From assembly GCA_050178385.1 (NCBI GenBank), contig JBFXGD010000047.1:1-21936 (forward strand): a stretch of 21,936 bases of DNA. Direction: 5' to 3'. The position numbers and the translations under genes are program-made. Each line of letters opens with the position of its first letter. Within the stretch, counting starts at the first letter, position 1. The DNA comes from Calditrichaceae bacterium (GTDB lineage: Bacteria > Calditrichota > Calditrichia > Calditrichales > JBFXGD01). The notes below the pieces were generated by a model. That model was not told the origin of the DNA, searched no databases, and saw only the letters and a list, made by a program, of their open reading frames with translations. Below, piece after piece: positions 2,899-21,300 of the stretch.

Positions 2899-3591
2899 TC
2901 AGGAAGTCGCAAAATCGTATCTGCGCGCCTTACTGTTCAACCGCATCTTCGCAAGTTCAGCGCGAACTTCAAACCAGCCCGTACGGGTATAACCGAATTT
3001 TGCTGTATTAAGGGCTTTTTTAATTTTATACGCCCCAAAACCAGGTTGTTCCTTAACGATGAGTTGTATTTTTCTTGAGAGACTCAAATCAGCCGGATTC
3101 ATTTCAGTTAACTCATCAGCGACATTTACCTTCTCAGCGCGTCTGTCATCGGTTCTTTGAGAAATTGGCGCTGGCGTCGGCTGAGGTGCTTTGGGGAGTG
3201 TGATTTCTTTGGCAACTGATTTTCCGGCGGCTTCAAGCATCTCAAATTTGTTTATAGCCTCATCCACGGTATCATATACGTCAAGGATGTGGTGGAATTC
3301 CAGAAGTTCAAATATTTCGTAAACATCAGGAACCATGCGGACTAATTTTAAATCACCGCCGTTTTCTCTGATCGATTTAATCTCACTGATAAATATCCCC
3401 CATCCCGCGCTGCTGATGTAATCGACATTACCAAGATCAACAATTATAAAGAACCGCCCTTGTCTCAATAGAGAATCCAGCGCTCGCTCCAGCTCAGATG
3501 ACGTTGTAGTGTCGATATACCCACCAACTTTTATAATGGAGATATGGTTCCGACTACCTGCAATTTCAGTAGAGACTTGAATTCCTTCCAT
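2899..3591 (-). CDS. STAS-domain anti-anti-sigma factor (RsbV/SpoIIAA-like) with a Pro-rich linker and C-terminal HTH-like domain
   Basis: aa 1-116 form a STAS domain: VGGYIDTTT, IIVDLGNVDYISSAGWG (predicted phosphoacceptor Ser61), GGDLKLV, VYEIFELL. Linker LPKAPQPTPAP. Tail aa ~169-228 is paralogous to a domain of the 1138-aa protein. Confidence 0.93.
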   Translation of the reverse strand: MEGIQVSTEIAGSRNHISIIKVGGYIDTTTSSELERALDSLLRQGRFFIIVDLGNVDYISSAGWGIFISEIKSIRENGGDLKLVRMVPDVYEIFELLEFHHILDVYDTVDEAINKFEMLEAAGKSVAKEITLPKAPQPTPAPISQRTDDRRAEKVNVADELTEMNPADLSLSRKIQLIVKEQPGFGAYKIKKALNTAKFGYTRTGWFEVRAELAKMRLNSKARRYDFATS

Positions 3592-3597
3592 CCAAAT

Positions 3598-3603
3598 CCT
3601 CCT
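3598..3603 (-). promoter_or_regulatory. Shine-Dalgarno site of the STAS gene
   Basis: AGGAGG lies 6 nt upstream of the ATG at 3591. Confidence 0.85.
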
Positions 3604-3652
3604 TCTACGGGAATTTATTTATTCAATTTTGATTCCGCATAATGTCGCGGAT

Positions 3653-6600
3653 TTAGTTCTTATCATTCTTTACTAACGATTCCAGCAATGAAGTATTGCT
3701 GACTATTTTTTTCTGAGCCAACTTTTTCCGGGCAATATCCATTTCACTTGAATTTTTAGTTTTAGCTGCAGACAATTTTGCAGTTATATGACGGCGAATG
3801 ATACCGATTTTATTATTTATTTCAGTTAATGATGATTGAACATTCAATATATAATCTTTTTCGACATATTTCAATAAGTCTTTTAATTTGGAATATGCAA
3901 ATTCCTTACCCAAATCCTTAAACTTAGACTCAAGCAGCGCGACTGATTCCTGCGTCTGCTCATAAATCCTTTGAATGTCGGGTAATTTTTTTAATATCGG
4001 ATTCTTCAACATAATTTTTAATATTAAATTTATTTTTTTCATCTCCTGCGCTCCGTCGGCGCTGGCATCAATTCCCCTGAGCAGTGATGAGATACCGGCA
4101 AGATCATCAGCGATTGAATCAAAAAAGTGTGCCAGTTCCACTGAATCAGTTTCAATAACCACCGTGGCTAACAATTCTTCTCTCGTTTTTTTCCTTGCCA
4201 GTTTTTCTTTTTGATCAGTTTTGTTTTTCACGCTATCAGAGCGATCTTTTCCGGGTTTCTCTGCTTCCTCTGTAGGCTTAAATGATATCCCGTCCTGATT
4301 AACTGTGATTGTTTCCCTATTTTCAATTCCCTCGACACTAACCTCTGCTGATTCGTTTTCTTTTTCAGTAGTGCTATTTTCTGCCGGAGGAGCTTTTTCT
4401 AACGGCTTCTCCTTATCAGGTTCTTTTGCGGGCTCCTCCGGTTTTGCAGGCTCAGTTGATTTTGCTGACTGATGCATAAATAATGGAGAAACCGATTCAT
4501 CCTTTTTTTCCGGTTTTTGAGTTTTATCGGTGTTAAATTCTCTCACTACAGCTTTTTTCGTATCGATCGGCAGACTTGTCAATTTTTGGGTAGCTTCTCC
4601 GGTACGCTTTGCAATCTCACTTTCTGATGACTGGAAATTCATAATTACTTTTCCGTCAAGCGTCAATAGCGGTGTACCAGGCTGTTTCAGTGCTCTCTTG
4701 TCTCCCTTCGATACAAACCTGACACGCTGTTCCTTCGTATTTAATTTTAGCTTAACCATTTCATTGTACAATCTTTGCGAATCAAGCTTTTCAAAACCAT
4801 AAAGTTCGGTATTCAAATCGTTAACAATTCGATTAGCGCCATACTCAGGATGTTTACGAATGATATCAAATATTTTTGCTTTAAGTTCTACGGATAAATG
4901 TTTTTTCTCAACATAATCCTGACCTTCGAGATATTCTCTCAGCGCGTCTAGCCCGCCTTCTTCAACAATACTCTTATATTTATAATAATGATATTGTGAC
5001 ACCCGCATTTGGTCACATGCATCCTTCACACGGGATCCACTTGATATTAATTCCAGTAATTCCTTATGAATTTTGTATACCACTTCGCCCGGCATTAATT
5101 TCTCCTTTACCGACACGAATGTGATATCATCATTCTGTGGGGCGCCACCGGTAAATGTTTTCAGATCTCCCTTGACACTTCTTACAAATTCCGCCACATC
5201 AAGATGACCGTTATTCCGGATAGCATCCAGAAATCTTTCTTCCCTGTACAATTCCCGTTTAGAATTCATTGCTTCTGTTATTCCATCGGTATAAAGAATC
5301 AGAATATCATCTTCTCTTAACCGTATAGAATCTGTCTCGATCTTCCTGTCGAACAGGGTAATATCGGGAAGCTGAATTCCCACAGGAAATCCTGATGGAT
5401 TAAGGTAGTATGTCTTTTTTGCGGATCCACGGTATAATATCATCGGATTATGCCCGGCGCTCGCGTAATGAATGATTCGATTCCTCGAGTCAAGAATGAT
5501 ATAGAACATGGTCACGAACATGCCGCGTTTCATATCATCGGTAACAAACCGGTTCACTTTGGCCAGAACATCCGCCGGATTTTTATTTCCCCGTGACTCA
5601 AGACGCAAAGCGGTACGAATCATGGTCATAATGAGCGATCCCGGCACGCCTTTTCCTGACACGTCAGCAACAATTATCCCGATTGTATCTTCATCGACTT
5701 CAACAAAATCGAATAAATCACCGCCCACTTCCTTTGCCGCTTCATAATACGATGAAATTTCAAATCCCTCGACTTCTGGGAAGTCGCTGGGGAGAAGCAT
5801 CTGCTGTATTTCCTGAGCAACCTGCAACTCCTTCTGCAATTTTTGCTGCTCCATCAGATTTACCTGGGCCTCGCGGAATTTAAAATTCATGTCATTGATG
5901 GCCTGGGCAATTTCACCAAGTTCATCCGATGTATCGATATCAATTTCATCCTGATCAACTTTATCATGTACAACCTGCCGGACCCATTCAGCAAGATTCT
6001 GGAATGGCGTAAGGATTCGGTGTATCAGAAAGAAGGAACCAACATATCCAATTGCTATTATTATTAATAAATAAAGGATCAAGCGCAGGCGTTTAGCTGA
6101 GGCAATATCTATCAATGACCGTTCATCAACCCAAATATGAACTTCTCCAAGTGACGTGCCTTCACCCAACAAAGATTGCCGAATAGTTGTCGACAAATCA
6201 TAGATATAACTGCTGTCACCCAGGCTATAGCTCATTACTTTCACATTAGCCAAACTATCCAGCTGAATAGCATTTTCCGGAATGGAATAATTTCCGGGGC
6301 CATCCATTTTCAGAGGAGTACTCCGCGCCTCGATTCTGCCATCCGGAAGGACAACAAATGCTTCCTGAATTGTTTTTTGATTGTTGTTTTTTACAGAACG
6401 CGCTTTCTCGAATAAACCCAGTGTATTTTCATTTAAAAGATCGTCCATAGCGTTATCCGCGAGAGAACGGCAATTTGAAGCGGCCTGCGCAAAAACTTCC
6501 TCGTTTACATCATTTCTCACATCGAAGATAAAAATAGAGAAAATGAAAACGGTAATGACAGTAAGTATTAGTGAAGCTACCAAAGAGTATTTGGCTCTTA

Positions 6601-7069
6601 GTGAAAAAGCCCGCCACTTGCTTATAAACTTTGATTCTTCAGGCGGTTCCTGTTTTTTTGTAAGCCTGAACTCATTGCCGCGTTCTGTGACGGCATATTG
6701 CAGATCATCCATGAGCTTTCGCATCATCATAATACCCAAACCGCCTTTTTTACCGATATCCACGTATTTAGCAAGATCCGGTGTATTGGCTTGTCTTGGA
6801 TCGTATGTACGTCCCTGATCAATGATCACGATCGTCAGACTTAATCTTCGGGCGATAGCTTTAACGGTGATTTCACCATTTTTGATATCTCTGTATCCAT
6901 GGCGAATTACATTTGTACATGCTTCATCAATAACGAGCTTGAAGGAATTTACCAGTTTTTCATCATACCGGTACTTTTTACCGATATGTTCAACAAAATC
7001 ACGTATCTGGACCAGATAGCTCATTTGAGCCGGAATCGTGATTTCTTCTTTTTTTACATTTTTAAACAT
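3653..7069 (-). CDS. Membrane-bound bifunctional partner-switching protein: RsbW-like HATPase kinase, TM, periplasmic domain, TM, HAMP, SpoIIE/PP2C phosphatase, HTH domains, linker, helical C-terminal domain
   Basis: aa 1-138: LVIDEACTNVIRHGY (N box), IIDQG (G1), GGLGIMMMRKLMD (G2). TM1 ~161-182 and TM2 ~330-349. HAMP: ILTPFQNLAE...DELGEIAQAINDM. PP2C: ELQVAQEIQQMLLP, EVGGDLFD, VADVSGKG, SAGHNP, LYTDGITEA, QNDDIT. About 480 further residues follow. Confidence 0.93.
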   Translation of the reverse strand: MFKNVKKEEITIPAQMSYLVQIRDFVEHIGKKYRYDEKLVNSFKLVIDEACTNVIRHGYRDIKNGEITVKAIARRLSLTIVIIDQGRTYDPRQANTPDLAKYVDIGKKGGLGIMMMRKLMDDLQYAVTERGNEFRLTKKQEPPEESKFISKWRAFSLRAKYSLVASLILTVITVFIFSIFIFDVRNDVNEEVFAQAASNCRSLADNAMDDLLNENTLGLFEKARSVKNNNQKTIQEAFVVLPDGRIEARSTPLKMDGPGNYSIPENAIQLDSLANVKVMSYSLGDSSYIYDLSTTIRQSLLGEGTSLGEVHIWVDERSLIDIASAKRLRLILYLLIIIAIGYVGSFFLIHRILTPFQNLAEWVRQVVHDKVDQDEIDIDTSDELGEIAQAINDMNFKFREAQVNLMEQQKLQKELQVAQEIQQMLLPSDFPEVEGFEISSYYEAAKEVGGDLFDFVEVDEDTIGIIVADVSGKGVPGSLIMTMIRTALRLESRGNKNPADVLAKVNRFVTDDMKRGMFVTMFYIILDSRNRIIHYASAGHNPMILYRGSAKKTYYLNPSGFPVGIQLPDITLFDRKIETDSIRLREDDILILYTDGITEAMNSKRELYREERFLDAIRNNGHLDVAEFVRSVKGDLKTFTGGAPQNDDITFVSVKEKLMPGEVVYKIHKELLELISSGSRVKDACDQMRVSQYHYYKYKSIVEEGGLDALREYLEGQDYVEKKHLSVELKAKIFDIIRKHPEYGANRIVNDLNTELYGFEKLDSQRLYNEMVKLKLNTKEQRVRFVSKGDKRALKQPGTPLLTLDGKVIMNFQSSESEIAKRTGEATQKLTSLPIDTKKAVVREFNTDKTQKPEKKDESVSPLFMHQSAKSTEPAKPEEPAKEPDKEKPLEKAPPAENSTTEKENESAEVSVEGIENRETITVNQDGISFKPTEEAEKPGKDRSDSVKNKTDQKEKLARKKTREELLATVVIETDSVELAHFFDSIADDLAGISSLLRGIDASADGAQEMKKINLILKIMLKNPILKKLPDIQRIYEQTQESVALLESKFKDLGKEFAYSKLKDLLKYVEKDYILNVQSSLTEINNKIGIIRRHITAKLSAAKTKNSSEMDIARKKLAQKKIVSNTSLLESLVKNDKN
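4715..5075 (-). other. IS481-family-transposase-like tandem HTH region within the sensor (aa ~666-785)
   Basis: LLELISSGSRVKDACDQMRVSQYHYYKYKSIVEEGGLDAL and IIRKHPEYGANRIVNDL...LKLNTKEQR resemble the two N-terminal HTH modules of IS481-type transposases as I recall them (LL.La....VskAC..mgvSR..fYry......GG.daL; P..G..Ri..eL...L.....R). Confidence 0.65.
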
Positions 7070-7091: not shown

Positions 7092-9026
7092 TTATTTGCC
7101 TGCGCTCTTGAGGCGTTCTTTCGCGCCTTTTATTGCAGCCAGGACCTTCTTATTATAAGGATGTTTGATTAAAATTTCTTCCCATATACCGATGGCATCC
7201 TGATATTTACCGATAAGGAATTTCTCCACGCCTTCGTGATAAAGTCGTTCCGCGTCCGGATCCATTTCATCTTCTTTTCCTATGGTTTCCACTTTCGACC
7301 GTTCAACATACTGCTTAACCAGCGGATTCTCAGGATCCATATCTAAAACGCCCTCAAAAAGCTGTAATGCTTTACTATACTCTCCTATATCGTACAAAAG
7401 CAAGCCTTGTTGAATATTTTCTTGTAATTTTATTCTTTGAGCCAATGCTTCGATCTCCGTCTGCAACTCCGCATTCTGCCCACCAAGCAATCTTGCGTCT
7501 GCCAAAAGCCGCAACGCTTCAGAATAATTCTGGTTTTTAAATTCTTCCCTGCTTTTACGAACAAGGCTGTTTATTTCTTCCGACAACCTTCTTTTTGTAG
7601 TTGAAATGGCATTCAGTAACGTCTCATTTTTCGGATCGCGCTCAAGTGATATGTTAAACTCAATTAAAGCTTCTGTAAACTGTTTTTTGTCAAGGAATAA
7701 CCGGCCTTTTTCAAAATGTTCATTTACATAACGCCTGTCATTCTCAGCCCTGTCTTTATCCAGAGCGTCTTGCACCGCCAGAGCCTGCTGTGCTTCAAAT
7801 CCTTTTTGCAGCATTGTATTTGATGAATCGAGCATCACCTTTGCTCTAAAATGGAACGGATCTTGTCCGATTACCTGCTGATATTCAACAATTGCATCCA
7901 GAAATTTTTCGGCGTTAAAAAATTCATCCGCTAATTTCAGGTGCGTAATAATCGATTGCTGCCTGTCAGACTCTCGTATTTCGGCGATGATGCGGTCTTC
8001 TTCTTCCTGTCGTTTTGCCTCTGCAATAGTAAACAGATCATCCCTTGTCAAACCGAAATTGAATGAAAGCGAAATGCGGTGTACCGCTGAAAAATAATCA
8101 CTGTATTCTGTCGAGCCAAAAGCATAGTCAATCTGGAAAAAACGATATTCGACACCGGCGCCGTATGTCAACCCATTGTTATCCATACCCAGCCTGAGCA
8201 TGCCCATATCTCTAAAGCTATACTCCGTCCCCATATTCAGTTTTAAATCTCTTTTTTCAGAATAATCAAAATCAAATGCCAGGTTTAATCCCCCTCCACC
8301 CGCAAATCTTAATTTTTTGTTGAGACCTAACCGGATACTCATCGGGTAATCGTCAACATCTATGCCTTCCTTTACTTGCGGAGGAAATAAGTTATGAATA
8401 TTTAAACCAAAAGACCAATCCTGAAGCCATCTGTTCGTAAACCAATCCGGACGATACATTATACCCAGATCGAGACCGACACCCATATCACTTAAACTTC
8501 CTTCATCATACAGATTACTCCACGCCCGTCTTACAACCCTGATCGTTGCCCCTGATGATAAATCCCATGGCAATTTTTTGGCGTATGAGAAATAAAACTC
8601 ATATTCTTCGCGGGAAAATTCACCTAAATATACATTATCTTTATCTGTCTGACTAATTTCACCGACTCCGATACGACCAATACCCAATCCAAAAGTCCCT
8701 AAACCCAGAGTCGGGAACGCATAGCCGAGGAAATCATAATTCGTTCCTTCAAAAAGAGACATGTGGAACAGTGTAACACTCTGTTGATAAATATATTCCA
8801 GTCCGGCAGGGTTCCAGAACACAGCAGTCGGATCATCCGCAATGGCTGTAAAGGCATGACCCATACCCATTGAGCGGGCCCCGTAACCAAAACTCAGGTT
8901 GCTCTCCGTTCCTCCCTGTCCATCCTGGGCGACCGCTCCGGCAGAAAATATTAAAATTGCCAAAACAGTGATGAATAAGCCTTCTGTTCTATTAAATAAT
9001 TTTTTTAATATTTGCATACCCGCCAT
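7092..9026 (-). CDS. PorV/PorQ-family (FadL-like) outer-membrane beta-barrel fused to a C-terminal coiled coil and TPR repeats
   Basis: Signal peptide ...FITVLAILIFSAGAVA|Q. Family signature LSFGYGARSMGMGHAFTAIADDPTAVFWNPAGL. Amphipathic strands end at IDYAF...HRISLSFNF (aa 324). TPR motifs follow: FLDAIVEYQQVIGQDP, FTEALIEFNISLERDP, YSKALQLFEGVLDMDP, YQDAIGIWEEILIKHP. Confidence 0.85.
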   Translation of the reverse strand: MAGMQILKKLFNRTEGLFITVLAILIFSAGAVAQDGQGGTESNLSFGYGARSMGMGHAFTAIADDPTAVFWNPAGLEYIYQQSVTLFHMSLFEGTNYDFLGYAFPTLGLGTFGLGIGRIGVGEISQTDKDNVYLGEFSREEYEFYFSYAKKLPWDLSSGATIRVVRRAWSNLYDEGSLSDMGVGLDLGIMYRPDWFTNRWLQDWSFGLNIHNLFPPQVKEGIDVDDYPMSIRLGLNKKLRFAGGGGLNLAFDFDYSEKRDLKLNMGTEYSFRDMGMLRLGMDNNGLTYGAGVEYRFFQIDYAFGSTEYSDYFSAVHRISLSFNFGLTRDDLFTIAEAKRQEEEDRIIAEIRESDRQQSIITHLKLADEFFNAEKFLDAIVEYQQVIGQDPFHFRAKVMLDSSNTMLQKGFEAQQALAVQDALDKDRAENDRRYVNEHFEKGRLFLDKKQFTEALIEFNISLERDPKNETLLNAISTTKRRLSEEINSLVRKSREEFKNQNYSEALRLLADARLLGGQNAELQTEIEALAQRIKLQENIQQGLLLYDIGEYSKALQLFEGVLDMDPENPLVKQYVERSKVETIGKEDEMDPDAERLYHEGVEKFLIGKYQDAIGIWEEILIKHPYNKKVLAAIKGAKERLKSAGK

Positions 9027-9031
9027 CTCAC

Positions 9032-9328
9032 TTATTTTATATAAGCAATTTTTGTGATAAATGTTTGCCGCGATCCGCCGCTTTTCGGCTTAATATCAAT
9101 CGCACAGAGATAAACCCCGTTTAAAACCACATAGCCACGGTCATTTTTACCATTCCATCGGACATCATCATAGTGCAGACCGGCAATCTGATTCGGCAGT
9201 ATTTTCGTCCATACAAGTTCACCAAGCAGAGTGAAAATCCTGATTTCCACATCCGAATCATGATCGAGCTGAAATACGATTGTGGTAAACTCTTCATTTC
9301 GACCAAACGGATTCGGATAATTTCTGAA
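9032..9328 (-). other. C-terminal secretion/sorting domain (T9SS CTD / FlgD-Ig-like)
   Basis: FRNYPNPF...FQLDHDSDVEIRIFTLLGELVW...VRWNGKNDRGYVVLNGVYLCAI...ITKIAYIK carries the YPNP, GxY and terminal KxxxxK hallmarks. Confidence 0.82.
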
Positions 9329-12300
9329 TGCCTCTTCGGGATTTGATGAAATCACCGTGAAAGCTTCAGATGTATAACTCTGACTTTCATTAATATCCAC
9401 GCCCTGAGCATCCTTAATCGCCAGCGGAACAGATGGATCCACATCGTAAGCGTTCACATGTTTTAATACTGTTCTGAAACTCCTGTTTTCCGCTTCGGTC
9501 TGTAATTCCGCCAAAACAATAATCGTATCCACCGCGCCGGCCTCTAGTGTATCGACTAGTGAAAAATCCATCCAAACAGGATTATCGGAAGATTCATCAA
9601 GTTGATACTCAGCAAAAATTTTCGGCCGCTGAACCGCGGTATTTTTTGTTAAACCGGTTTTGTACTGATCATAGTTTACAACTTTCAGGCTCTTCATCAT
9701 ATTCGCGATGGCCAGCTGATTTAGGAGATTATCCGCCGTAGGCAAACCGAAAGTGGAGTATAATCCAATCTCAACTGCATTCACATTCAAATTATCCTCA
9801 TATCCCTGATTGGATATTGAAAACGCCAGAATAGCCCTGTCTGTCATTCCGCGCAGGAAACTCCGGTCAACAATTAAGTCATTCAGCATTAAAACTGTAA
9901 TATTTTTCTGTCTGACTCTGACCGGGAGCGAAACGAGACCCGTCATGACATCAATTTCCGCGGATAATCCACTGTTCTTATCTGACGGAAGCCCTGTAAA
10001 ATTAAAGTTTATACTGACCGTACGTTCTGATAACGGAGCTTTAATGCGCCATACCAGTTTTTGACCTAATTGTGTAAATGTCTTCTTGTACGTTTCACCT
10101 TCGACAAGCGTAAATCCATTTTGTATGATCAAAGCGGAATCCAGACTTATCGCCCCTGAACCCTGAACATCAGCATATCCTATTCCTGAAGTATTTTCGG
10201 CATATTCAGCCCAAAGCTCCACAATTACTTCCTGACCAAACGAAAGCAATCCGGCCTGTGATGAAACCGGTGAAATAAGCGTGTGCTTTAATGAAAGTTT
10301 TGGTCTCTTTTGCACCGTCAACGGATTAGCTACAAGCGAGGTCGGATCAGTTACTTCACCACTGTTTCTGTCGATACCGGTTAAAAATACCGCGATAGTG
10401 TCTTTTCCGGTTCCCGTGTAATCTGCCGGTACGGCGATATCCCAGGTGGCCTGATTATTGATATCAAGAGATCTGGCGATAACCGCGCCGCCAAATTTTT
10501 CAGGCATCAGGAGATATGCCACCGGGTTGGCCAGGTTTGAACTGATCTGACCGGTTACACGATATATAAATGTTTGACCTGTCGAGACGGTATCAGGTGA
10601 TTCTGTCGATACAATACTAAGAGTTGCTCCTTCTTCCGTATAAATTGTCTTAGTCTGAGTTTCATTTATTGTCGCGGGTTTTTGGGTATTCACATCGAGC
10701 GGAATGCTGTCAACTTTTACCGTAATCTGGTAAGATTCTTTTGCCGCTGCAGCTACAATAAGAGCATCTTTAACCACTTTTTGTAAATCTGTACCGCTTA
10801 TTCTGCCATCAAGCTGCTCAATATCACCTGTCTCTTGACCGGGTGAGCTGTTTTTACTGTTGATCCCGTTTAAAATACTTTTAAGCTCGGCCATTGATGC
10901 GGCGCTTTTTGTTGACGCTCCGTCCACTCTGACCCACCAGTAAAAAGGTGTGCCTACGGTAAAAGTCTTTTGTGTATCAGGATCAATCAAAGTAAATTCA
11001 GGGCTCAAAAGAATTGATGTCTTTCCCGTTCCGGATATGGCCGCGGTTCCGGGTTGAAGCGTCACTAACCCTTCCAGCTTCAAGGTTTGACCCACAGATA
11101 CCGTATCATCTGTTGCGCCCGCGGGTTCAACAATCTTTAATCCCAAAACAAGTGATGATTTCAGCACAACCTGTACAGGCAGAAGATTTGATGTTGTCTC
11201 TACAAGCTGTCCGCTGTTCTTATCATATCCGATTATCCTGACACTTATATTAACTGTTCCCGGTGTAGGCGAACCGGTAGCAACTATTTCCCAATCAACA
11301 ACAGCCGTGGATGTAGCCGGTAAATCTTTTATGGAACTTGTTTTCACTGAAAAACCGGATGGTAGAAGAATCTGAGCCACTCTGCCGGTATCACGAACGG
11401 ACTGGTTGAAAGATATCTCTGTATGAAGGACAAATTCCTGCCCCGTTGAGATAACACTGTCCCGGGCACCATCGGGTGAAGCTATACTTATCAAAGCTGT
11501 GACTATGCCGGCTTCATCAGTCCTTACCAGAACCGTATCAATCGTTTTCACCGTTGTTACGTCTCTTCCCGTATTGAGATCAATCGGAATTTCATTCATC
11601 TGAATTCGCAGGCTGTCAAATATACCTCCGGTACTCACTGAAAGCGCTTCCAAATTCCATTCAGCATATGCCTGTGACTGTGTAAATGTTTTTTCACTAA
11701 TATCACTGTCAAATTTATAATGAATCGTATCCGGCAGACTCATTGTCATCTTGCCGCTGCCATAAGATGACACACCGCTTACTCTGCTTACATCAGCGCG
11801 AACTTTAAATTTTGTCCCAACCGATATGATTCCGTCAACCGCTCCAACCGGCGAAATAATGGCCGCATTAAGAGCTAAACGGCTTGCGGTCTGAACCAAT
11901 ACCGTTTCCAAATTATCAACCGGTTGTTGAATTGTTACAAGACTCCCTGTCAAATCAATCGCGGAATCAATTTTTACCTTATACACCGTGGATCCGTCTA
12001 TTGCCAAGCCCGGTGAGTTATAGACCATTGTTTTGTAATTAAACGGCGCGATATCTGTCATCACCAGCTGCTGCAGGAAATTATCATCTCTGGATAAGGA
12101 AACATATGCGGTCCGGATCGTGTCAGCTCCGTTGTTTACAAGTCTCAACCGGAGATTAAACGATTCGTTTTGATTGACATAAGGCGCGTTCGGTGCCAGA
12201 ACATCTTTTATGATTTTCAACGAATCAATCCCCACTATAGCCGGACGTATCACTAATACAGAATCCATGAAAATCACTGTTTTTGATGTGTCAGTAAAAG

Positions 12301-15300
12301 TCGAAGTCCGCAGATCCCGGTATGAAACAATCGGCCTTGGTTTCACAATACCGGTCGTTGCGGATTGCGATAAGTTATAATTTATCGAATAGGTTCGGCT
12401 TTGACCGGCCATGAGAGTATCAGGGAACAGATTGAACGTAGAGGGGAGCCATTGTGTTGAAACATCTGCAGCACCGGCGTTGAATATATGATCTATCTTA
12501 CTGATTGCCGCTGATGATTTTCCAAGGTTAGCCAAAGTATAGTCGATGGCGATATCATTTTGCCCCTGTCTTACTGTTTCGGGTAAAATATTTATCTGGG
12601 TGAAAATGAGCCTGGCCTCAGGAATAATTTTTAAAACCCCGAAAATCGTTTCTTCTTTTTCATAATCAGACCCGTTCAGCAATGTTCCCTTTAATCGCCA
12701 TTTTACATTATAAATAACCGTGTCCATTGTTACTGGAACCGTTAGACTATTAAATAAGATCTCCGTGGAATCAAGCCCGCCAAGTGTAAATTTACCGGCA
12801 AGATATTTCCGGGATATGGGCGAAGAAAGAATCTCCATATAGGAAGAATCAGGGTCCAGCGCCAAATCTGCTGATCCCGCGTTATAAAATGTGAATGCGA
12901 AGGAATTTGTTTGCCTTCTCACCAGCGTATCCGGATTCATACTTCCTAATACATAGCTGATGTTTGCTTTTGACAAAACAATCATGTCTTCAAAAGTGGA
13001 GGATTCTTTCACCAGATTGCCGTTATCCAGACTGATTTGACCAAAAATATTCGTCTGTCCCAACGGGAAAGGATCCGGCAGATCAAAAACAAATATGAGA
13101 CGATTATTACTGCTGGTTTTTAGCACCGTCAGAGTGTCGGTGCGGTTTAAATTATTGACATTCCGAATACTGCCGTCCGTGGCGGATTTCATTATTAAAG
13201 TAGTTCCGGCCGGATCAATCTGAAGCGGAATTCCGCTGTTTGACACCGTCATTATAACCTGAATCCCTGTCTGTCCCGGAATAACCCGGTTATCACCGAC
13301 AATACCAATTGATGTAATTGAAATCAAGCCCGCTCCATAGGCAAAAATGCCGGCATCATGATCACTCTGATATGCCGCCTTGTTCGATGCTCCCCTGACG
13401 TGCAGTCTTAACGGATATTCCTGAGATTGTATTGCGGTAATCAGGGTACTTCTGAATACAAGTTCGGTGGTATCGGGAAATGCTTTGATAGTCTGCGGAC
13501 TTGTTCCCGCCAAATTAATCAAATACGAAGTTCCCTGGATCTCTATGGAAGTAAGATTGGAATCAAGTTCGACTGTCGCTTCTCCTCTATTCACTACTTT
13601 TAGCCGGAATTGAATAGTCGTGTCTCCCGGAGATGCATTGGGAATGGTCTCAAAAACCGAAAGCGCTGCCGGTGTTTCAATAAAAAATTGCCCCGGACTA
13701 CCCGAGCTCGCGCTGAGATCTGCTCCGGAGTTGGACTCTTTCCCTGAAATGGTATTATTCACTCCAACAGTACCTGTATATCCCGAAGGAATGACTAATG
13801 AATAAATAAGAGTGTCCGTTAAACCACCCGACAGGTTAAAGGGTGTTGAATGACTGATCAAAACGGGTCCAAGATTTATTGGCGGTGACACTGACAATTG
13901 ATTGGAATTAATGACAGCGTCAGCTTCCCCGGAGTTTGAGACACTTATTGAGAGCCGGGCATGCGTTTGTCCCTGACTTACCGTATCGGGAAGGACCGCA
14001 ACTGAATTAACCGCCAGAAGAGCTTGCTGCTCAACTGTTAAACTACCGGCTATTACAGCTCCGTCCTGAATAGTCAGCATTCCGTCATTAACATCCCTGG
14101 TCCCTGTATAACCGTCAACACTATAGATATCAGACAATGTACCGCCCAGAGTCGCCAGATTAAAGTCAAACCTTGTCGATGACCCGGGTTTTAATATTAA
14201 CGGAATTGAAGGTGATGAATTTCGTGAAATCGTGAATAAATCATTTCTCTCAACCGCGCCGCTTGTCATTAATTTTAGTCGGACAGAATCCACCTGCGCA
14301 TCCGCGCGGTAAGGACCCGCGGCATTACTCATATATATCGCTGCCCGGAGATTAGACTGATTTGTTGAAACAAGCTGCGGTGCTACCGTCACACTATCGA
14401 TCACAACCTGAGGCCGCAATTGAACCTGCCATGTATCCGTCACCGTTGTGTCGGTGATGTCAAAATTTTGCTGTGACAGCAGTTCTGTTAAATTGATACT
14501 GGCATACATGGTATCTGGCCCGGTTTGCGCGTCAAAATTAATATCCACCGGTACGGTAAACACCTGGGATAAACCGCTGTCAATTGTTCTTGGCAGAATC
14601 GGACTAACCGGATTAAAGACATAATTTTCATTTCCGTTTTGATACTGAAGCGCCAATGTTTCAACTCTGGCAGGAGATGTTCCGACATTTTTCACTCTCA
14701 CACTTACATTGACTGATGTCTGCCCCTGTGACACAAAATCCTTCACCGCGGAAACACTGATAATCTCGACCAAAGGCTTTCCGGTCACTTCCCAGGCCAT
14801 AAAAGACGCACTAGTAAGGCTTGATGACTTTCCGGAAAAATTGTTCTGATATTTTATGCTCGCATACAAAGTATCATGGCCTGTTGCTGAATTTGTTTGC
14901 ACCGAGACTGAATCAGTGATTGTTATTTCAGAATGTCCTGCCAACGGGATGGGGAAAGCCGGCCATTCGTTGGTATACAAACCGATTTCAGCGATGAGAT
15001 TCAAATTGTTTATCGAAACCGGTGTTCCACCGCTATTCCTTATCGTGACCGAAACTGGTATTTTGGACTGTCCCTGGCTAACAAGACTGTCGGCCGGATT
15101 CACATGAGCAATTTGGGTAATTGATATAACCGGAGGTGTATATACGTTCCAGGAATCTGTTGCCACGGCGGATGCAGTGGTAATCTCGCTTCCGCTGTTG
15201 ATATCAATCCCTTTTCCTCTTGCGTCAATCGTGACTAATCCGGTATCGGGACCTGTGGGTACCGTCACTCTGACGTCGAATGGCCTGGTCTCACCGCCTG

Positions 15301-18300
15301 TGAGCGTATTCGGGAGCCCCGGCGCGATTGAAACCGGTACGCCATATGGTATAACAACAAGAGAATCGATTCTTAATAAGGCCTGTCCGGTATTTGTTAC
15401 ATCGATTGTAAGCAAGGTATCCACACCCTGACTGATATCGGTTCCGGAAGCGATGACAGAATTAATTTGTAACACCGCCGGATTTTGAACGACCAGACTG
15501 TCAGCGGCAGTAAGAGAATCATTAAACGCGGCGCCGTTTTCAGTACCGTTTAATACAAGAAGTCCTTCATATTTGGCATCACCCGGAATGGTCAGATTGG
15601 TGGCAGTGAAATTCAATGTTGTAGTCGATCCGCCTCCGGCGAGCGCCTGATTGGTAGTCAAATTAAATTTTTGACCTCCAAACTCAAAACTTGTAGATGT
15701 TTTATTTAAAAGGACATCATAAACGCCGTCATTTTTAACCTGTGCTGCAAACTGAACATTTTGACCGGCTGATACCGTTTTAGGAGTGTAATCAGCAAAC
15801 GTCAGAACGGCTGCGTTCGCAATGATAAACTGATCAGTTTGCGAAGATTCTGTATCGGAAATCAAATCCCCGGTACCGGAGTACCGGCCCATGACTGTTC
15901 CATCAACAATTATAGTATCCGGTGTAGCGCCGCTGGGAATATTGAGTGAGAACTCAAAAATTCCATCAGAATCACTTAGAAGAGAGTCCGGTCCCGATAA
16001 TTGAACTTCACTAAATCCATAATCAGGAGTAAATGTCAGATCCGCACTGAGATCACGAATCGTGTACATACTGGTGTTTCGGATTCTCATTTGAATCATA
16101 TTTATGGTGTCACTCTTCCGGACTATTTTAGACGCCGGATCGAGAACTGTAACCGATACAATTCTCAGAGGCTCAATGGAAAGCTCTACAGCATCCGTAG
16201 AAAGAGTGCCGTTCATTCCGCTATAATCTTCCCGGCCGACCAGATGAATTTCGGGCGTGTATTTTCCGCTAAGGAATCCACCATTAATAATCGCCGGTTT
16301 AAATTTCAATAAATTTTCCGGACTGCGGGGCGGCAATGCCAGCGGTGAATCCAGTTTAGCGGTAATACTGTAATCAGTATCGTTTATAATAAAGCTGCTC
16401 AGGGATGTATCCAGAGGTACAATGTCAATTCCGGGATTGGAAACTTTTACATAAAATGTGGTCGTATCTCCGGGCATTACAACCTTTGGCTCCAGAGAAT
16501 TGGATACATAACGGATGCCGTATATTTTAAAGGCCGCTGTATCAATCAATCCTGTGATATAGGCTTTCGCAAAAGAGGAATCAGCCTTTTTGGGACTGGT
16601 ATAAAGCGAATGCGCTAAGCCATTTTCATCGGATTTATCGGTCAGGTTTGAAATATATTGTGTCGGAATAAACTGAACAGTCTGATCTTTTACCATATTG
16701 CCGAATTGATCCTGAACCTGAGCGACTATCTGCTGATTACCGCCTGCGATGCTAGTCCGGTTATTTCCTGAATAGGCGACAATCGTATTTGCCACATCCG
16801 CATTCACAAGTGCATTAAATATGACAGGGGTCTTTCCGGGACTGTCCACTGTGAGAGTGTCATTTCCCGATACGGTTCTCAGTGTCCATATTACTGAATC
16901 CAGACCACTTGCATTCGTTACTAATCCTGAATGATCAACTCCTCCGTCTAGCGAAGGCGTCCAGTTAATCGTCACACCCTGGACAGGGTTGTTATAAGCG
17001 TCAACAGATCTCACTTTAAGATATTGAACAAGCGGCTGACCAACCGTACCGGTTTGATTATTTCCGGAGACTATGAGTATCTGAGCCGCTGTATCCGGCA
17101 CAGCAAATGCTGTAAACTTAATCGGACTGTTGTTCAACTGACTATTGAAAGCTGAAACCTGATACTCTCCTGTCATACTCCCCAACTGGAAGAATGTTTG
17201 CACATTACCATAAGCGTCTGATAAACCGGATTCCTGTGTAAAATTGAAATTATGCTCCGCGTTTACCGGGTGATCTGTCACGGAAAAGGTAACCGAAACC
17301 CCTGCAACCGGATTCCCGAAATTATCTTCGACCCTAACCACAAATGGTTGTGCAAGAGTATCCTGAACCGTACCCGTCAGAGAATCACCGGAAACATAAA
17401 CAAGTGTATTTGCAGATGAACTTAAAGCATTCGCGTAAAAGATAACCGGTGTGGCAATTCCTGCAACAGCGGCAGAAGCCGAGTCTAGTCCGACAGTTGT
17501 TTTCAGACGCCATTTACTTCTGGAAACGCCCTGGGTGTCAGTGGCATCAGACACAGGATTAAGAACGCCGTCACTATTTGTACTCCAGGTTACACTGGCA
17601 GCCGGCACCAGATTATTATAAGCGTCAACAACCCGTATTCCCAGTGAATCACTGATGAAATCACTGACCCTACCGCTAACCGTATCCGGGGTAATTTTTG
17701 TAATCGCAAACGCCGCGCCGGATCTGACTTTGATAATTCCCGAATAATCATTCAAGGAACCACGTGTAATTTTGATCTGCGAAGAATTTGCCACAGTGAA
17801 ATTAATGGTATTAGTTGCCGCGGAATCCGTTTGAGTAAACGCGCCGATCGAGTCACCGTCAACGGTCCATGACACATTTGCCGGCGAGATATAATTTCCT
17901 TTAACGTCATAACCAGCCGCGTACAAATCTAAGGACCCACCCGCTGCGGCAGTGTAAGCGCCTAACTCAGTACCTCCGGCGCCGGCAGTGGTCTGAATTC
18001 TGATGGATGCCAACTCTCCCGTCTGAACCGTAATCGTACCGGTCGCATCGTTGGTCCAACCGTTGGAATTTGTAACCTGTACTGCACCTGAGCCTGGTGA
18101 AGTCGGTGTGAGAGTAGTTACATACACATTTGTACTATTTCCAAGACCGGTCAATCCGCCTGTTACGTTCCAGTTAACAGGAGCATTTTGACTAAAATTA
18201 TTATCACTATCATATCCTGCCGAGTACAGGCTTAGAACCTGTCCAACCGCAAGAGTTGAGTCACCTATTTCAATTCCTCCATTGTTCGATTCAGTGCGAA

Positions 18301-21300
18301 TCTTAACATAGGAGACAGCCCCCGGGTTGACCGTGATCAATCCGGCATTGTCATAAACCGATGTGTTGGAAACCGCCGTAGCTCTTACACTTCCGGTACC
18401 ACTTAATGTTGCTTCAATATGCAGACTGTCTGTAGGATTTGCCGGTGAAATGGCAGAGATTGCGCCGCTGCGTGTCCAGTTTGATGAAACACGCCCTCTA
18501 TAGTTTCCATCCGCGTCGTAACCGACGGCATAGACATCTATAAAGTCATCGGCCGTAATGGTTGAATCACCTAATTCCGTTCCGTCATCAAGATCGTCTA
18601 TCTGCACCCGCAGCTCTGCCAGACTGCCGGGATTAACCGTAATGATTCCTGATGTATCCGCATCTACGGTCGGATATGTTGAATGTGTGGCCACAATCTG
18701 ACCGGTTACACCTGCAAGAACCGGGTTGAAGGCAAATTTCGAACCTGTGGAAGTCACCGGATCAAGACCGCCGAGACTTGTCCAGTTAACCACAACATCT
18801 GATCGATAGTTATCATATTGATCATAACCCGCTGAGAAGAAATTGACAAGATTATCTGCCGTAAAAGTGGAATCAGCAAATTCAACGCCGCCGTTATTGG
18901 CTTCGGTGCGCACCAGGACATAATTTAAGGCCGCCGGATTTACGGTAATAAGACCGCTTTCTCCCTTAACGTCTGTACTGGTTGATTTGACCGCCCGAAC
19001 AGTAAAGCTGCCTTTTTTTGTCTCACTTACGCTAAAGGCCAGTGTGCTGCTGGAACTAAAGACAAACGGCCCGCCTGCAAATACTGCTGTCGCGCTGCCC
19101 ACCGCACTCAATGTCACCTGATCACTGTTTACGACTTCATTACCGTTCTGATCGCGGGCAGTGAGTGTAAATGCTACGTTTCCGCCGGCAGTTATTGTAT
19201 TATCTCCCGAAGGTGTAAAGGTATAATAGCTGACTTTACCCGCCTTTAACGGCAGAATGATGGTATCAAGGATTCCACCGAATGAAACCTCAACACTGTC
19301 CCTCAAATAATACAGTGAATCGCTGGCTGTGTAGCGGGCTTCTGCTATTCCACCGGCATCGGTATCATCATTAATGTTGTCCAGTCCGTTGCTGAACAAT
19401 CCATTGCCGTTAAATCTTCTAAAAGTGACTGTCTGCAAAGCGGGCAAACGGTTATTATAAACATCTTCCAGACCAACCTGCAGGAGACGTTCGGTATCCG
19501 TTGTAATTGCATCCTGACTGGAAATGATGACAAAATGATCCGCCGCGGCAGCGTTTACCGTAATAAGTCCGCTCTCCCCCTTAATTTCGGTATTTATTGT
19601 TTTAGCCGCTCGTACTATAAAACTGCCTTTTGTATCATCGCTTACGCTGAAATTAAGCGTACTGCTGTTACTGAACTGGAATGGGCCGCCGGAAAATACT
19701 GCTGTTGCGCTGCCTGGTGCCGATAATGTTATCTGATCATTATTGATAACCGGATTTCCAAACTGATCGCGTGCCGTCAGTGTGAAACCAACGCTTCCGC
19801 CCGCAGTTATTGAATTGTTCCCTGAAGGTGTAAAGGTATAGTAGCTCACATTGCCGGCTTTTAATGGCAGCACGATCGTGTCCTTAACACCGCCAAAAAC
19901 GACTTCGACGCTGTCCCGCACATAGGTCAGGGAATCGCTGACAGTATATAACGCAGACGCGATCCCGTTATTATCCGTTGTTTTTGAGATCACATCTGAA
20001 CCATTGCCGAATAGGCCGTTTCCATGCAGCCGGTTAAAAGTGACTGATTGTCCGGATGAAACACGATTATTAAAGGCATCTTCCAATGCGACTTCGAGTA
20101 AGCGTGACGTTCCGACTTTAATAGAATCCTGACTGGAGATAATTATAAAATGATCTCCGGTTGCCGGATTCACCGTGGCGTTAAAATTAACGTCTGTTAA
20201 TCCGGGGCTTGACGCTGTCAGTAAATCGGCTCCCGCTGTCGATTGCAATGTCCATGTAACAGAATCCAGACCGCTTGCATTAGTGGTCAAACCGGTATGG
20301 TTTACTGAACCATCCGCAGCCGCTGCCCAGTTGATAATCGCTCCCTGGACAGGATTATCATAAGCATCAACGGCCCGTATCTTGTTTGATAACGCAAGAG
20401 CGCTCCCCGCAGTGCCAGTCTGATTATTTCCAGATACAATTACTAACCGATCCGCTACATCCGCCGTTGCGCTGACTGTAAAACTGACTGGACTGTTTAG
20501 CAACTGACTGTTATAGGCCGCGATCACATAATCGCCGACCTTTGTACCAAGAGTAAAGGTCGTTCTGACAAAACCACCCGCGTCTGAAGCGGCAGAAACC
20601 GGATTGATTATGAAATCATGGCCGCCGTCTGCTGGATGAGACGTTAAGGAAAATGTTACTGATACACCGCTGACGGGATTTCCCAAACTGTCGATAACCT
20701 GTACGGTTAACTGCTGGGATAATTCCTGACCGACAATATCGGTCTGTCCACCGCCGGCAAAATATTTTAAACTGTCTGCTGTTGATGTCAGAGTATTGGC
20801 GTAAAACTCAATCGGGGTTCCGATACCGGTAATTTGCGCCCTTGCTGTATCTGTCCCAACAGTTGTCATTAAATGCCATTTGCTTCTTGAGATTCCCTGA
20901 CTGTCAGTGACATCATTAACAGGATTCAACGAACCGTCCGAAGGAGTTGACCAGGTTACCACCGCTGACGGAACCAGGTTTCCATACGCATCTGTAACCA
21001 TCACCCCAAGAGAATCTGATATAAAATCATTTACTTTTCCACTTACAGTTTCCGGTGAGATTCTCGCGGCCGAAAAAGCATCGCCTGCCCTTACTTTTAT
21101 TACTCCGGAATAATCGTTCAATGCACCCCGGGATATTTTAATCTGAGACGTGTTAACCGTAGTAAAAGTAATATTATTACTTGTAGATGAATCCGTCTGA
21201 CTAAAAACTCCTATCGAATCTCCATCCACACTCCATGCAACTGTTTGATCGCCAAGGTAATTTTCGTAACTATCGTATCCGGCTGCAAAAAGATCTAAAT

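Follow-up and report, generated by a model that had tools for sequence, protein, structure and literature searches.

A conserved kinase/phosphatase–STAS switch with an IS481-type helix-turn-helix domain: possible sigma-free control of cell-surface genes

Calditrichota and KSB1 share a conserved phospho-switch which, as our analysis suggests, may regulate genes of the cell surface with no need for the customary sigma factor. In the window, which is the entire contig C47 (21,936 nt), a sensor that joins a kinase and a phosphatase in one polypeptide (order GHKL-TM-TM-HAMP-PP2C-HTH-HTH) neighbours a STAS protein with a helix-turn-helix (HTH) tail. The two proteins have one domain in common, the second of the two HTHs in IS481-type transposases; both HTHs of the transposase module are present in the sensor, and the second only in the STAS protein.

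The sensor and its STAS-HTH partner

Both open reading frames are intact and real (Table 1). The kinase domain of the sensor keeps its N, G1 and G2 boxes, as judged by Pfam, conservation and alignment with RsbW; E49, N53, D84, G86 and GGLG at 109–112 have a conservation of 0.94 in the homolog alignment; and comparison with RsbW (6m36) gives an E-value of 7e-16 over 117 aligned residues. The phosphatase aspartates D451, D469, D595, D647 and D648, which from knowledge of the family we take to be metal-binding, are conserved at 0.97–1.0. The transmembrane and HAMP segments lie between the two enzyme domains, and neither Pfam nor NCBIfam gives a REC match in the sensor. The extracytoplasmic domain is probably Cache-like: sCache_3_2 is matched in six and dCache_1 in five of 33 aligned members of the sensor family (neither matches this sensor itself in the same scan), and a further indication is P0297 (E 2e-11).

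Table 1 Features of the locus
Feature	Position	Strand	Evidence or remark
Membrane kinase/phosphatase sensor, 1138 aa (P0001)	3653..7069	-	Same architecture in homologs
RsbW/SpoIIAB-type Ser kinase, HATPase_c_2, aa 12-138	6656..7036	-	Pfam E 1.5e-26
Two transmembrane helices (about aa 163-181, 331-349) flanking variable 144-aa extracytoplasmic domain	6023..6583	-	Hydropathy peaks
HAMP domain, aa 347-394	5888..6031	-	Pfam E 3.6e-7
PP2C/SpoIIE phosphatase, aa 460-655	5105..5692	-	Pfam E 8e-50
HTH1 of IS481-type bipartite module, aa 662-716	4922..5086	-	HTH_23/28/29 in 48/36/26 of 61 members
HTH2, shared domain, sensor copy, aa 727-790	4700..4891	-	Alignment, profile, AlphaFold2
Near-invariant linear motif KxPGTPLLTLDG, aa 795-806	4652..4687	-	Alignment of 61 rows
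Sensor C-terminal domain without known family, after charged, poorly conserved linker	3656..4177	-	
Putative housekeeping-type promoter TTGAAA-17-TATATT for STAS gene, inside sensor 3' coding end	3846..3874	-	
STAS-HTH protein, 230 aa (P0002): STAS 14-112, variable linker, HTH2 169-230	2899..3591	-	
Ser61, predicted phospho-acceptor	3409..3411	-	Alignment with RsbV 6m36_B, TM1442
HTH2, shared domain, STAS copy, basic	2902..3087	-	HTH_21 in 37/70 members
PorV/PorQ-like outer-membrane protein with TPRs, conserved upstream neighbour	7092..9026	-	NF033709 over cut-off; synteny
Giant secreted Ig-repeat surface protein, conserved upstream neighbour	9032..21936	-	5' end beyond contig

In the KxPGTPLLTLDG motif, K, P, G, T, P, T and G are invariant in 61 rows. 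AlphaFold2 predicts the motif to be disordered in isolation (pLDDT 46–55), and it is absent from seven sensors with three fused STAS domains. Its reading as a remnant of the first integrase strand is unsupported, as the transposase alignment ends before it. The C-terminal domain of the sensor is present in 42 loci and has no Atlas match at 0.9 or above.

Ser61 of the STAS protein is invariant in 61 rows and matches the conserved serine of RsbV (6m36_B) and TM1442; it is the RsbV phospho-position, in support of the first-pass annotation. The sensor probably phosphorylates this STAS protein. In both phyla the STAS gene has, on the evidence of its sequence, a housekeeping-type promoter of its own: the promoter-encoding peptide recurs in 34 of 42 loci, with Leu written as TTG in 34/34 and Ile as ATA in 24/24 (background 20% each), and 28 of 30 KSB1-like loci have an intergenic equivalent.

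Type and fold of the shared HTH domain

Residues 729–785 of the sensor align without gaps to residues 171–227 of the STAS protein, with 19/57 identities. The local score of 91 was reached in 0 of 2000 shuffles (mean 37, maximum 65), and profile–profile comparison of the two HTH2 copies gives 98.7% (E 1.8e-16, 70 columns). AlphaFold2 places the same four helices in both copies (pLDDT 93 for the STAS tail, about 90 for the sensor over that part); the tail model has no strand and hence is not a winged HTH. The match, the HTH folds and the "strongly basic" STAS copy (K+R 14 vs. D+E 5 in the tail) reported by the first-pass annotation are all borne out. The IS481-transposase type of the domain had escaped it, as had a second STAS-HTH protein in the exopolysaccharide (EPS) locus.

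Because the sensor has another, upstream HTH, the match to the STAS protein covers half of a bipartite module; HTH1 has no similarity to the STAS tail and is absent from the STAS protein. The IS481 model NF033577 covers sensor residues 671–758 (E 3.6e-7, 30 bits vs. a cut-off of 224), and the module is collinear with the IS481 N-terminus (L103 residues 58–179, 38.7 bits), with the HTH1–HTH2 spacing kept. The sensor has no DDE integrase core: the NF033577 match stops at model position 92 of 284, and rve gives no match. Compared with IS481/IS3-type DDE transposases (NF033577; HTH_28/HTH_32/HTH_21), the pair thus keeps a collinear HTH1-linker-HTH2 in the sensor and HTH2 alone in the STAS protein, but lacks the integrase core, is a fixed single copy and has altered residues at the start of helix 3. 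Six distant sensors (P0318, P0336, P0353, P0366, P0379 and P0383) have HTH2 with no HTH1 match.

The nearest Atlas models of the STAS tail are the paralog, the sensors and IS481 transposases, and, once the system itself is set aside, the predicted structures closest to the domain are those of IS481 transposases (TM 0.72–0.74); the Atlas search gave no feature match for the tail. Foldseek returned nothing at E≤0.001 (for the sensor module, TnsB and Pax paired domains ranked first, E 0.6–1), solved structures queried by sequence, with the sensor module or with the profile of the tail, gave nothing meaningful, and VIA-align of solved structures gave tied generic HTH matches only (Z≤5.5).

Genomic context and comparison with known systems

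The pair is fixed, not mobile, with one copy per genome and constant synteny. Of 86 Calditrichota genomes, 82 have the sensor module as a single in-frame copy at a constant position, and the shared domain is found in 121 of 121 KSB1 genomes; STAS homologs keep the tail in 79 of 80 loci, and the adjacent sensor, whose gene stands directly before the STAS-HTH gene, carries the domain in 75 of 80, in line with the pairing first proposed. Conserved neighbours are the adhesin, PorV-TPR, DUF456/4159/4175, Obg, DprA or EPS genes, with no immune operon among them. As the window is the whole contig, the giant gene lacks its 5' end here; an ortholog has a C-terminal FlgD_ig domain (E 1e-3) and Big_1 repeats.

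The cassette includes no sigma gene. The first-pass statement that none lies between the giant gene and the terminator stands for the sigma factor, as the contig has no sigma-70 region-2 match (all 17 matches in the genome, including two RpoD-like and many ECF-sized proteins, are on other contigs), but not for the terminator: the putative site at 2327–2350 is one of six matches vs. 7.4 expected by chance, and since DUF4159/DUF4175 genes come next on the same strand in Calditrichota loci, the operon end is not fixed there. Of 80 loci, only 2 have a sigma gene within 10 kb; none of 20 upstream segments contains one, and none of the 86 Calditrichota genomes has a SigB/F/G over the cut-off of 234 bits; 250–260-aa sigma factors of relatives score up to 146 bits on SigBFG. 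The genome also has three stand-alone RsbW-like kinases and six plain STAS proteins.

In 20 of 21 loci wza immediately follows the EPS paralog, and in 19 of 21 wcaJ lies upstream of it. This genome has an RsbW-like kinase beside a second wza; as it does not lie near the paralog in the complete genomes G006 and G030, its role as the kinase of the paralog is unsupported. A palindrome occurs upstream of the adhesin operon in 15 of 16 loci and, at p≤0.05, upstream of wcaJ in 9 of 14; it fits CRP better, and all 15 motif-positive genomes encode a CRP ortholog. The motif before the EPS paralog resembles ops; a NusG paralog exists, and the motif fits that protein better. No operator among the conserved upstream motifs is assignable to the shared HTH domain. 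A riboswitch before the EPS paralog was considered and dropped because Rfam has no match for the motif and only the C5 copy forms a long hairpin over it.

Kinase and STAS-HTH pairs are already known, as are sigma-free partner switches. Literature searches, with most subscription papers out of reach, gave no description of this system. The closest published pair is the kinase and STAS-HTH repressor CapK/CapS (Chambers et al., EMBO J 2026, PMC13373217), whose design, in the part of the paper available, is similar to that of the present system, for which the first-pass annotation knew no characterised counterpart, though HTH type and architecture differ. There, too, the gene of an anti-sigma-type GHKL kinase immediately precedes that of a STAS protein ending in an HTH, each of the two proteins has an HTH, the serine of STAS is kept and a sigma factor plays no part. 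As described there, CapK is an ssDNA-activated HTH-STAS-GHKL protein with no phosphatase domain mentioned, and CapS has a winged HTH, dimerizes through STAS and binds palindromes of its own locus, which adjoins immune operons. In the present pair the kinase sits in the membrane and has HAMP and PP2C domains, the HTH is of the four-helix, wingless IS481 type, adhesin and EPS genes are nearby, and the search for an operator yielded none.

SypE of Vibrio fischeri resembles the sensor in being one protein that acts as serine kinase and phosphatase for a STAS protein, SypA, tied to a polysaccharide locus without a known sigma partner; the sections available (PMC4517449) describe SypE as a response regulator set by phosphorelay and SypA as a single STAS domain, with no HTH described. 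RsbU-RsbV-RsbW-sigmaB and SpoIIE-SpoIIAA-SpoIIAB of Bacillus (PMC8256260, in part; 6m36, 1th8) share the three domain types, the catalytic motifs and the phospho-serine, but here kinase and phosphatase are fused, the STAS protein has 230 aa with an HTH, no sigma gene is linked and no SigB/F/G exceeds the cut-off in the phylum. HenR/All4160/Alr3423 of Anabaena (bioRxiv 10.64898/2026.04.08.717354) and SiaABCD of Pseudomonas (PMC7647112, PMC8457831) are, from the portions available, further sigma-free phospho-switches for exopolysaccharide or biofilm; they act through a biosynthetic enzyme or a diguanylate cyclase, and those portions mention no HTH. SiaA weakly matches the HAMP-PP2C part of the sensor. 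The first-pass premise that such systems act by releasing a sigma factor does not always hold, given SypA and All4160 as described in these sources.

Proposed output of the switch and its alternatives

We tentatively favour, as the output, a phospho-controlled nucleic-acid-binding activity that acts on adhesin and EPS genes. The sensor would be a membrane-bound bifunctional enzyme that receives a signal at its extracytoplasmic domain and relays it through HAMP; this would set the balance between the RsbW-type kinase and the PP2C phosphatase, and thereby the level of Ser61 phosphorylation on the STAS-HTH protein (and possibly also phosphorylation of the EPS-locus paralog). Phosphorylation would alter the oligomeric state of the STAS-HTH protein or how far the sensor captures it at the membrane, in a manner similar to CapK/CapS, and the protein, with its long-domesticated IS481-type HTH, would act on nucleic acid without a dedicated sigma factor, its likely targets being surface functions (the giant adhesin and exopolysaccharide).

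This reading is favoured because the nearest outside structures are IS481 domains and the module is collinear with the IS481 N-terminus, and because the tail is basic across both phyla (mean net charge +7.3 for the cassette STAS, 69 rows, and +9.4 for the EPS paralog, 21 rows) and better conserved than the linker (mean top-residue frequency 0.73 vs. 0.51). Also in its favour are the rarity of linked sigma genes, the lack of a SigB/F/G over the cut-off, the apparently housekeeping-type STAS promoter and the position of the paralog before wza; as far as the available text of PMC13373217 goes, CapS shows that phospho-control of a STAS-HTH repressor does occur. Several observations count against it: no operator is assignable to the domain; the palindromes fit CRP and the ops-like motif the NusG paralog; in 28 KSB1-like loci the STAS promoter is without a conserved flanking palindrome, unlike CapS autoregulation; the predicted recognition helix opens with aromatics, as set out below; the tail is a single HTH, any dimer being hypothetical; and the solved-structure matches are generic (best Z 5.5).

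Alternatively, the shared domain may have turned into a protein-interaction module whose docking is gated by STAS phosphorylation, giving post-translational control of the kind proposed for SypA and shown for All4160; we consider this unlikely, though deserving of serious weight. The partner would be the sensor (through HTH2 or the KxPGTP motif) or envelope/polysaccharide enzymes. Helix 3 of the tail, the predicted recognition helix, opens with conserved aromatics (W206 1.00, F207 0.87) where transposase L103 has small polar residues, and this start could be a protein-binding surface. Docking would also agree with the distant sensors that keep HTH2 with no HTH1 match, the loss of the KxPGTP motif from sensors with three fused STAS domains, the EPS paralog set between wcaJ and wza, cis motifs that fit other regulators, and precedents seen in part: SypA, which acts without a known sigma (PMC4517449), and All4160, an EPS enzyme under STAS phosphorylation (bioRxiv 2026.04.08.717354). 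The tails, however, retain a net positive charge, two basic domains being poor mutual partners, and the sensor retains the transposase HTH1–HTH2 spacing, which docking alone would presumably not need. Complex prediction for sensor 658–815 with the full STAS-HTH protein gave a score of 0.01 and a mark of 0.32, which speaks neither for nor against docking.

A classical partner switch, in which the kinase domain holds an unlinked sigma factor that unphosphorylated STAS frees, is improbable, and so is the accessory role it would leave to the HTHs, for example tethering the proteins to DNA. The RsbW alignment, the region-2 proteins of the genome and the SigBFG scores of the relatives' sigma factors speak for it; the rarity of linked sigma genes, the lack of a SigB/F/G over the cut-off in 86 genomes and a promoter unlike an alternative-sigma feedback promoter speak against it, and the stand-alone kinases and plain STAS proteins could serve sigma control instead. 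That the domains are inert remains of recent IS481 insertions is very improbable and largely refuted: they are homologous to IS481 N-termini, and 30 of the 86 Calditrichota genomes have IS481-like elements, but the module is single-copy, in-frame and constant in position in 82 of those 86 genomes, the domain is present in all 121 KSB1 genomes, residues are invariant, the sensor has no integrase core, and a weak HTH2 tree (106 rows, 67 columns; too weak for the order of events) separates the copies of the sensor from those of STAS. A tblastn search of the module against plasmids gave, among the best 20 of 423 records, E-values of 0.005 or weaker, two of the records being annotated IS481.

Beyond the favoured nucleic-acid-binding output, we put forward, as a rather unlikely extension, that a transposase module domesticated before the Calditrichota/KSB1 split is the output of a core transmembrane phospho-switch: the sensor and the two STAS-HTH proteins would bind nucleic acid through related HTHs, and serine phosphorylation would set site occupancy or membrane holding of STAS-HTH, co-ordinating adhesin and EPS without sigma. 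A STAS-HTH dimer might then recognize, in place of CRP or alongside it, the palindrome that the adhesin and EPS promoters share and that we assign to CRP.

For several STAS switches linked with biofilm polysaccharide, SypA foremost among them, no output is known. In the present pair a candidate output domain is plainly recognizable on the substrate, which makes the question directly testable with Ser61 and tail mutants. As the system is nearly universal in two little-studied phyla, it is a core regulator of the envelope and no mere curiosity. Should DNA binding be true, the principle of CapK/CapS would reach beyond immune loci into transmembrane sensing, and a bacterial example would be added of a transposase domain turned regulator.

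The HTH-like domain shared by sensor and STAS partner

The window comprises contig C47 in full; the STAS protein encoded on it has its nearest named homolog, at 96% identity, in a Calditrichaceae bacterium. The membrane kinase/phosphatase (the sensor) and the adjacent STAS protein were proposed in the first-pass annotation to carry the same extra HTH-like domain, and our analysis bears this out: the two segments align without gaps, with 19/57 identical residues; their local score of 91 was equalled by 0/2000 shuffles; the family profiles of sensor domain and STAS tail match in profile–profile comparison (98.7%, E 1.8e-16); and AlphaFold2 predicts the same four helices in both copies. The sensor has two HTHs, and the STAS tail resembles only the second, HTH2, by profile comparison. 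Among 120 aligned sensors, the motifs of kinase and phosphatase show a conservation of 0.94–1.0, and Ser61 of the STAS protein aligns with the RsbV serine and is invariant in 61 rows.

Features of the sensor, the STAS gene and the exopolysaccharide (EPS) paralog (coordinates in the window unless stated otherwise)
Feature	Position	Strand	Remarks
Sensor gene	3653-7069	minus	1138 aa, ORF intact
RsbW-type kinase	sensor aa 12-138
Two transmembrane helices flanking a probably Cache-like domain, then HAMP	sensor, between kinase and PP2C
PP2C	sensor aa 460-655
HTH1	sensor aa 662-716
HTH2	sensor aa 727-790
KxPGTPLLTLDG motif	sensor, after HTH2		near-invariant
Charged linker, then C-terminal domain	sensor C-terminus		domain of no known family
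STAS gene	2899-3591	minus	230 aa, ORF intact
STAS promoter	3874-3846	minus	inside 3' end of sensor gene
Small hairpin	3634-3651		sensor-STAS gap; terminator-like on plus strand; conservation not seen
EPS paralog STAS-HTH	contig C5:11964-12776 = locus L001 8965-9780

Among the best 80 of 203 GTDB loci, STAS homologs keep the tail in frame in 79, the remaining one having it in an overlapping ORF, and an HTH2 gene lies upstream of STAS in 75/80. Contig ends truncate two of the five other loci; in at least two, L052 and L069, a neighbouring sensor is genuinely absent, though the genome of L052 encodes one elsewhere. In the assemblies of loci L011, L024 (genome G040) and L044, sensor or STAS ORFs appear to be interrupted by a stop or frameshift in or near the HTH module. 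The sensor module is single-copy in 82/86 Calditrichota genomes (complete in 80, partial in one and split in another), and the tail profile matches in 121/121 genomes of a second phylum, KSB1, with three matches in 107, a number that corresponds to one sensor and two STAS proteins by ORF size as verified in genomes G086 and G087 only. The sensor/STAS-HTH pair is real, ancient and conserved.

Most of 20 segments upstream of the giant adhesin gene (L135 not being syntenic and L143 lying entirely within that gene) carry one gene for a TPR protein and another for a small secreted protein; those of Calditrichales contain GAF-GGDEF and GAF-HD genes in addition. No sigma match was found in the 20 segments. 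The adhesin operon is preceded by a conserved c-di-GMP-related block (locus L127 2943-9022, and contig C101 of our genome), which encodes a sigma-54-type AAA protein, a GAF-GGDEF protein, a TPR protein of 382 aa with very high conservation, and a GAF-HD protein. The window's operon probably has its 5' part on C101. STAS is followed in the window by DUF456, DUF4159 and DUF4175 genes (1-2881) and, in Calditrichota relatives, then by a patatin-POTRA-Omp85 gene. As the downstream genes differ in many KSB1-like loci (obg and dprA in L048), this block is probably outside the switch.

Origin and spread of the HTH module

The sensor profile aligns collinearly with the N-terminal part of a transposase of the IS481 family, and residues 671-758 of the sensor match the IS481 model at its beginning (E 3.6e-7); no integrase core was found in the sensor. 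HTH_21 matches the STAS tail in 37/70 members, and the Atlas models nearest to the tail are the paralog (TM 0.95), sensors (0.81, 0.74) and IS481 transposases (0.72-0.74).

A search with the module profile gave 699 matches, the best 150 of which comprise 101 sensor-like proteins, 2 STAS proteins and 47 others. In 50 scanned matches no integrase match was found, and 19 are GT2 glycosyltransferases with two module copies at the N-terminus; of 10 clusters whose names were checked, 3 are assigned to Patescibacteria or Microgenomates. From these matches we infer that the module was fixed more than once on membrane-linked, polysaccharide-related proteins; the tree of HTH2 is too weak to put these events in order.

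The GT2 proteins include giant polysaccharide synthases, some of them named Patescibacteria, with two tandem N-terminal modules (P0322, P0331, P0343, P0344, P0347, P0360 and others). Variants of the sensor and STAS proteins are sensors fused to three STAS domains and lacking the KxPGTP motif (P0299, P0300, P0301, P0305-P0307, P0314); sensors with HTH2 only (P0318, with long TPR tails, P0336, P0353, P0366, P0379, P0383); and, among P0364, P0387 and P0289, STAS proteins with two HTH2 matches and one sensor with two module-matching stretches.

The EPS paralog and two conserved motifs

The second STAS-HTH lies directly 5' of wza in 20/21 loci and 3' of wcaJ in 19/21, 20 of these loci having been selected by us from second matches. 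Its C-terminus has a conserved RYRY/F-YRSC motif, with the terminal Cys in 18/21. At L097 (4136-6865; one genome) an EPS-type STAS-HTH is apparently fused behind a GH3 glycoside hydrolase, which may reflect loss of the stop codon or misassembly. A divergent stand-alone RsbW-like kinase (L182 14366-14914; C45:18365-18910), with matches in 42/86 genomes, lies upstream of a copy of the ops-like Motif B (below) and of another wza-wzc cluster; a kinase gene also precedes wcaJ in L101.

The operator search for the HTH domain returned two conserved motifs, both better explained by other proteins. Motif A (TGTG-N7-TCAC, with a -10-like box 21-22 nt further on in most loci) lies upstream of the adhesin operon in 15/16 loci, against 0.5% of shuffles; a copy that is weaker and in most cases reversed stands before wcaJ in 9/14. 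Motif A is similar to the CRP consensus site. Among the proteins of our genome is a CRP-family member with the helix SRETISR, whose ortholog occurs in 75/86 genomes, including all 15 Motif A-positive ones. The genome's top PWM match is the copy at C101:2622(-) (L183), which, like those in L127-L146, stands ~21 nt before a -10-like box; the gene downstream of this palindrome is the small secreted gene heading the giant-adhesin operon.

Motif B (TGTAANTGACNNGGCGRAGC; 20 nt) precedes the EPS paralog in 12/20 loci and occurs in 78/86 Calditrichota genomes, against 2 matches in total in controls. In our genome it lies at L001 8919-8938 (C5:11918-11937) and on C45, C162, C187, C217, C70 and C73, followed by the EPS STAS-HTH gene, a wza-like gene and others. 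It resembles an ops element; no Rfam match was found at the C5 copy. The genome has a second NusG-family gene (C53), and Motif B is a candidate recruitment site for this paralog; the role of ops elements is described in PMC6391919.

Output of the switch

Phosphorylation of Ser61 is likely set by the sensor, judging from domain content and synteny, and this holds whether the output is nucleic-acid binding, docking or sigma release. The window was said to hold no sigma gene, and indeed all 17 sigma-70 region-2 matches of the genome lie outside its contig; a sigma gene occurs within 10 kb of STAS in 2/80 loci (best 80 of 203), both times outside the cassette. The STAS gene has its own promoter of housekeeping type, intergenic in 28/30 KSB1-like loci (our own grouping, in which some records carry other labels) where shuffles predict 0.6, and found by strict pattern in 18/51 loci of Calditrichota, where it sits within the 3' end of the sensor gene. 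The promoter-overlapping sensor codons are fixed in 34/42 loci with the C-terminal domain (Leu TTG 34/34, Ile ATA 24/24; background 20% each), a bias that is complete, with p-values overstated since relatives are non-independent. Release of an unlinked sigma factor keeps a small chance, because RpoD-like, ECF-sized and unclassified 250-260-aa sigma factors are present, but SigB/F/G exceeded the cut-off in 0/86 genomes. The earlier view of sigma release as the general output of such switches does not hold: All4160 is reported to be an EPS enzyme under direct control by STAS phosphorylation (bioRxiv 10.64898/2026.04.08.717354).

Closest in logic is CapK/CapS, also with an HTH on both partners; as reported in PMC13373217, STAS-serine phosphorylation breaks the CapS dimer and DNA binding, and deletion of the CapK HTH has no effect. 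Since architecture, HTH type and neighbours differ, the sensor/STAS-HTH pair is not a CapK/CapS member. In SypE/SypA (PMC4517449), too, one enzyme combines both activities and there is a tie to polysaccharide, but this system contains a receiver domain and its STAS protein is bare. Paper searches, covering few subscription papers, found no description of the system; further architectures may be listed in the CapK/CapS datasets.

IS481 ancestry, fold, kept positive charge and the CapS precedent favour DNA as a candidate output; mean net charge is +7.3 in the STAS tail, +9.4 in that of the EPS paralog, +4.0 in sensor HTH2 and 0 in HTH1. Against it speak the two upstream motifs, which other proteins explain better, and the STAS promoters of 28 loci, about which no conserved palindrome was found. 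Tail helix 3 opens with a conserved Trp-Phe, where the transposase L103 has small polar residues; this would fit changed specificity or a protein surface, and in the latter case could point to docking between proteins, which we consider less likely than nucleic-acid binding but more likely than sigma release. That the HTH domains are an inert remnant is very improbable. Phospho-controlled nucleic-acid binding by STAS-HTH is tentatively ranked ahead of these rivals, at a little under even chances. The pair is a new partner-switching variant with a domesticated IS481-type HTH, whose STAS-HTH protein may bind nucleic acid under phospho-control and would thereby act on surface-structure genes.
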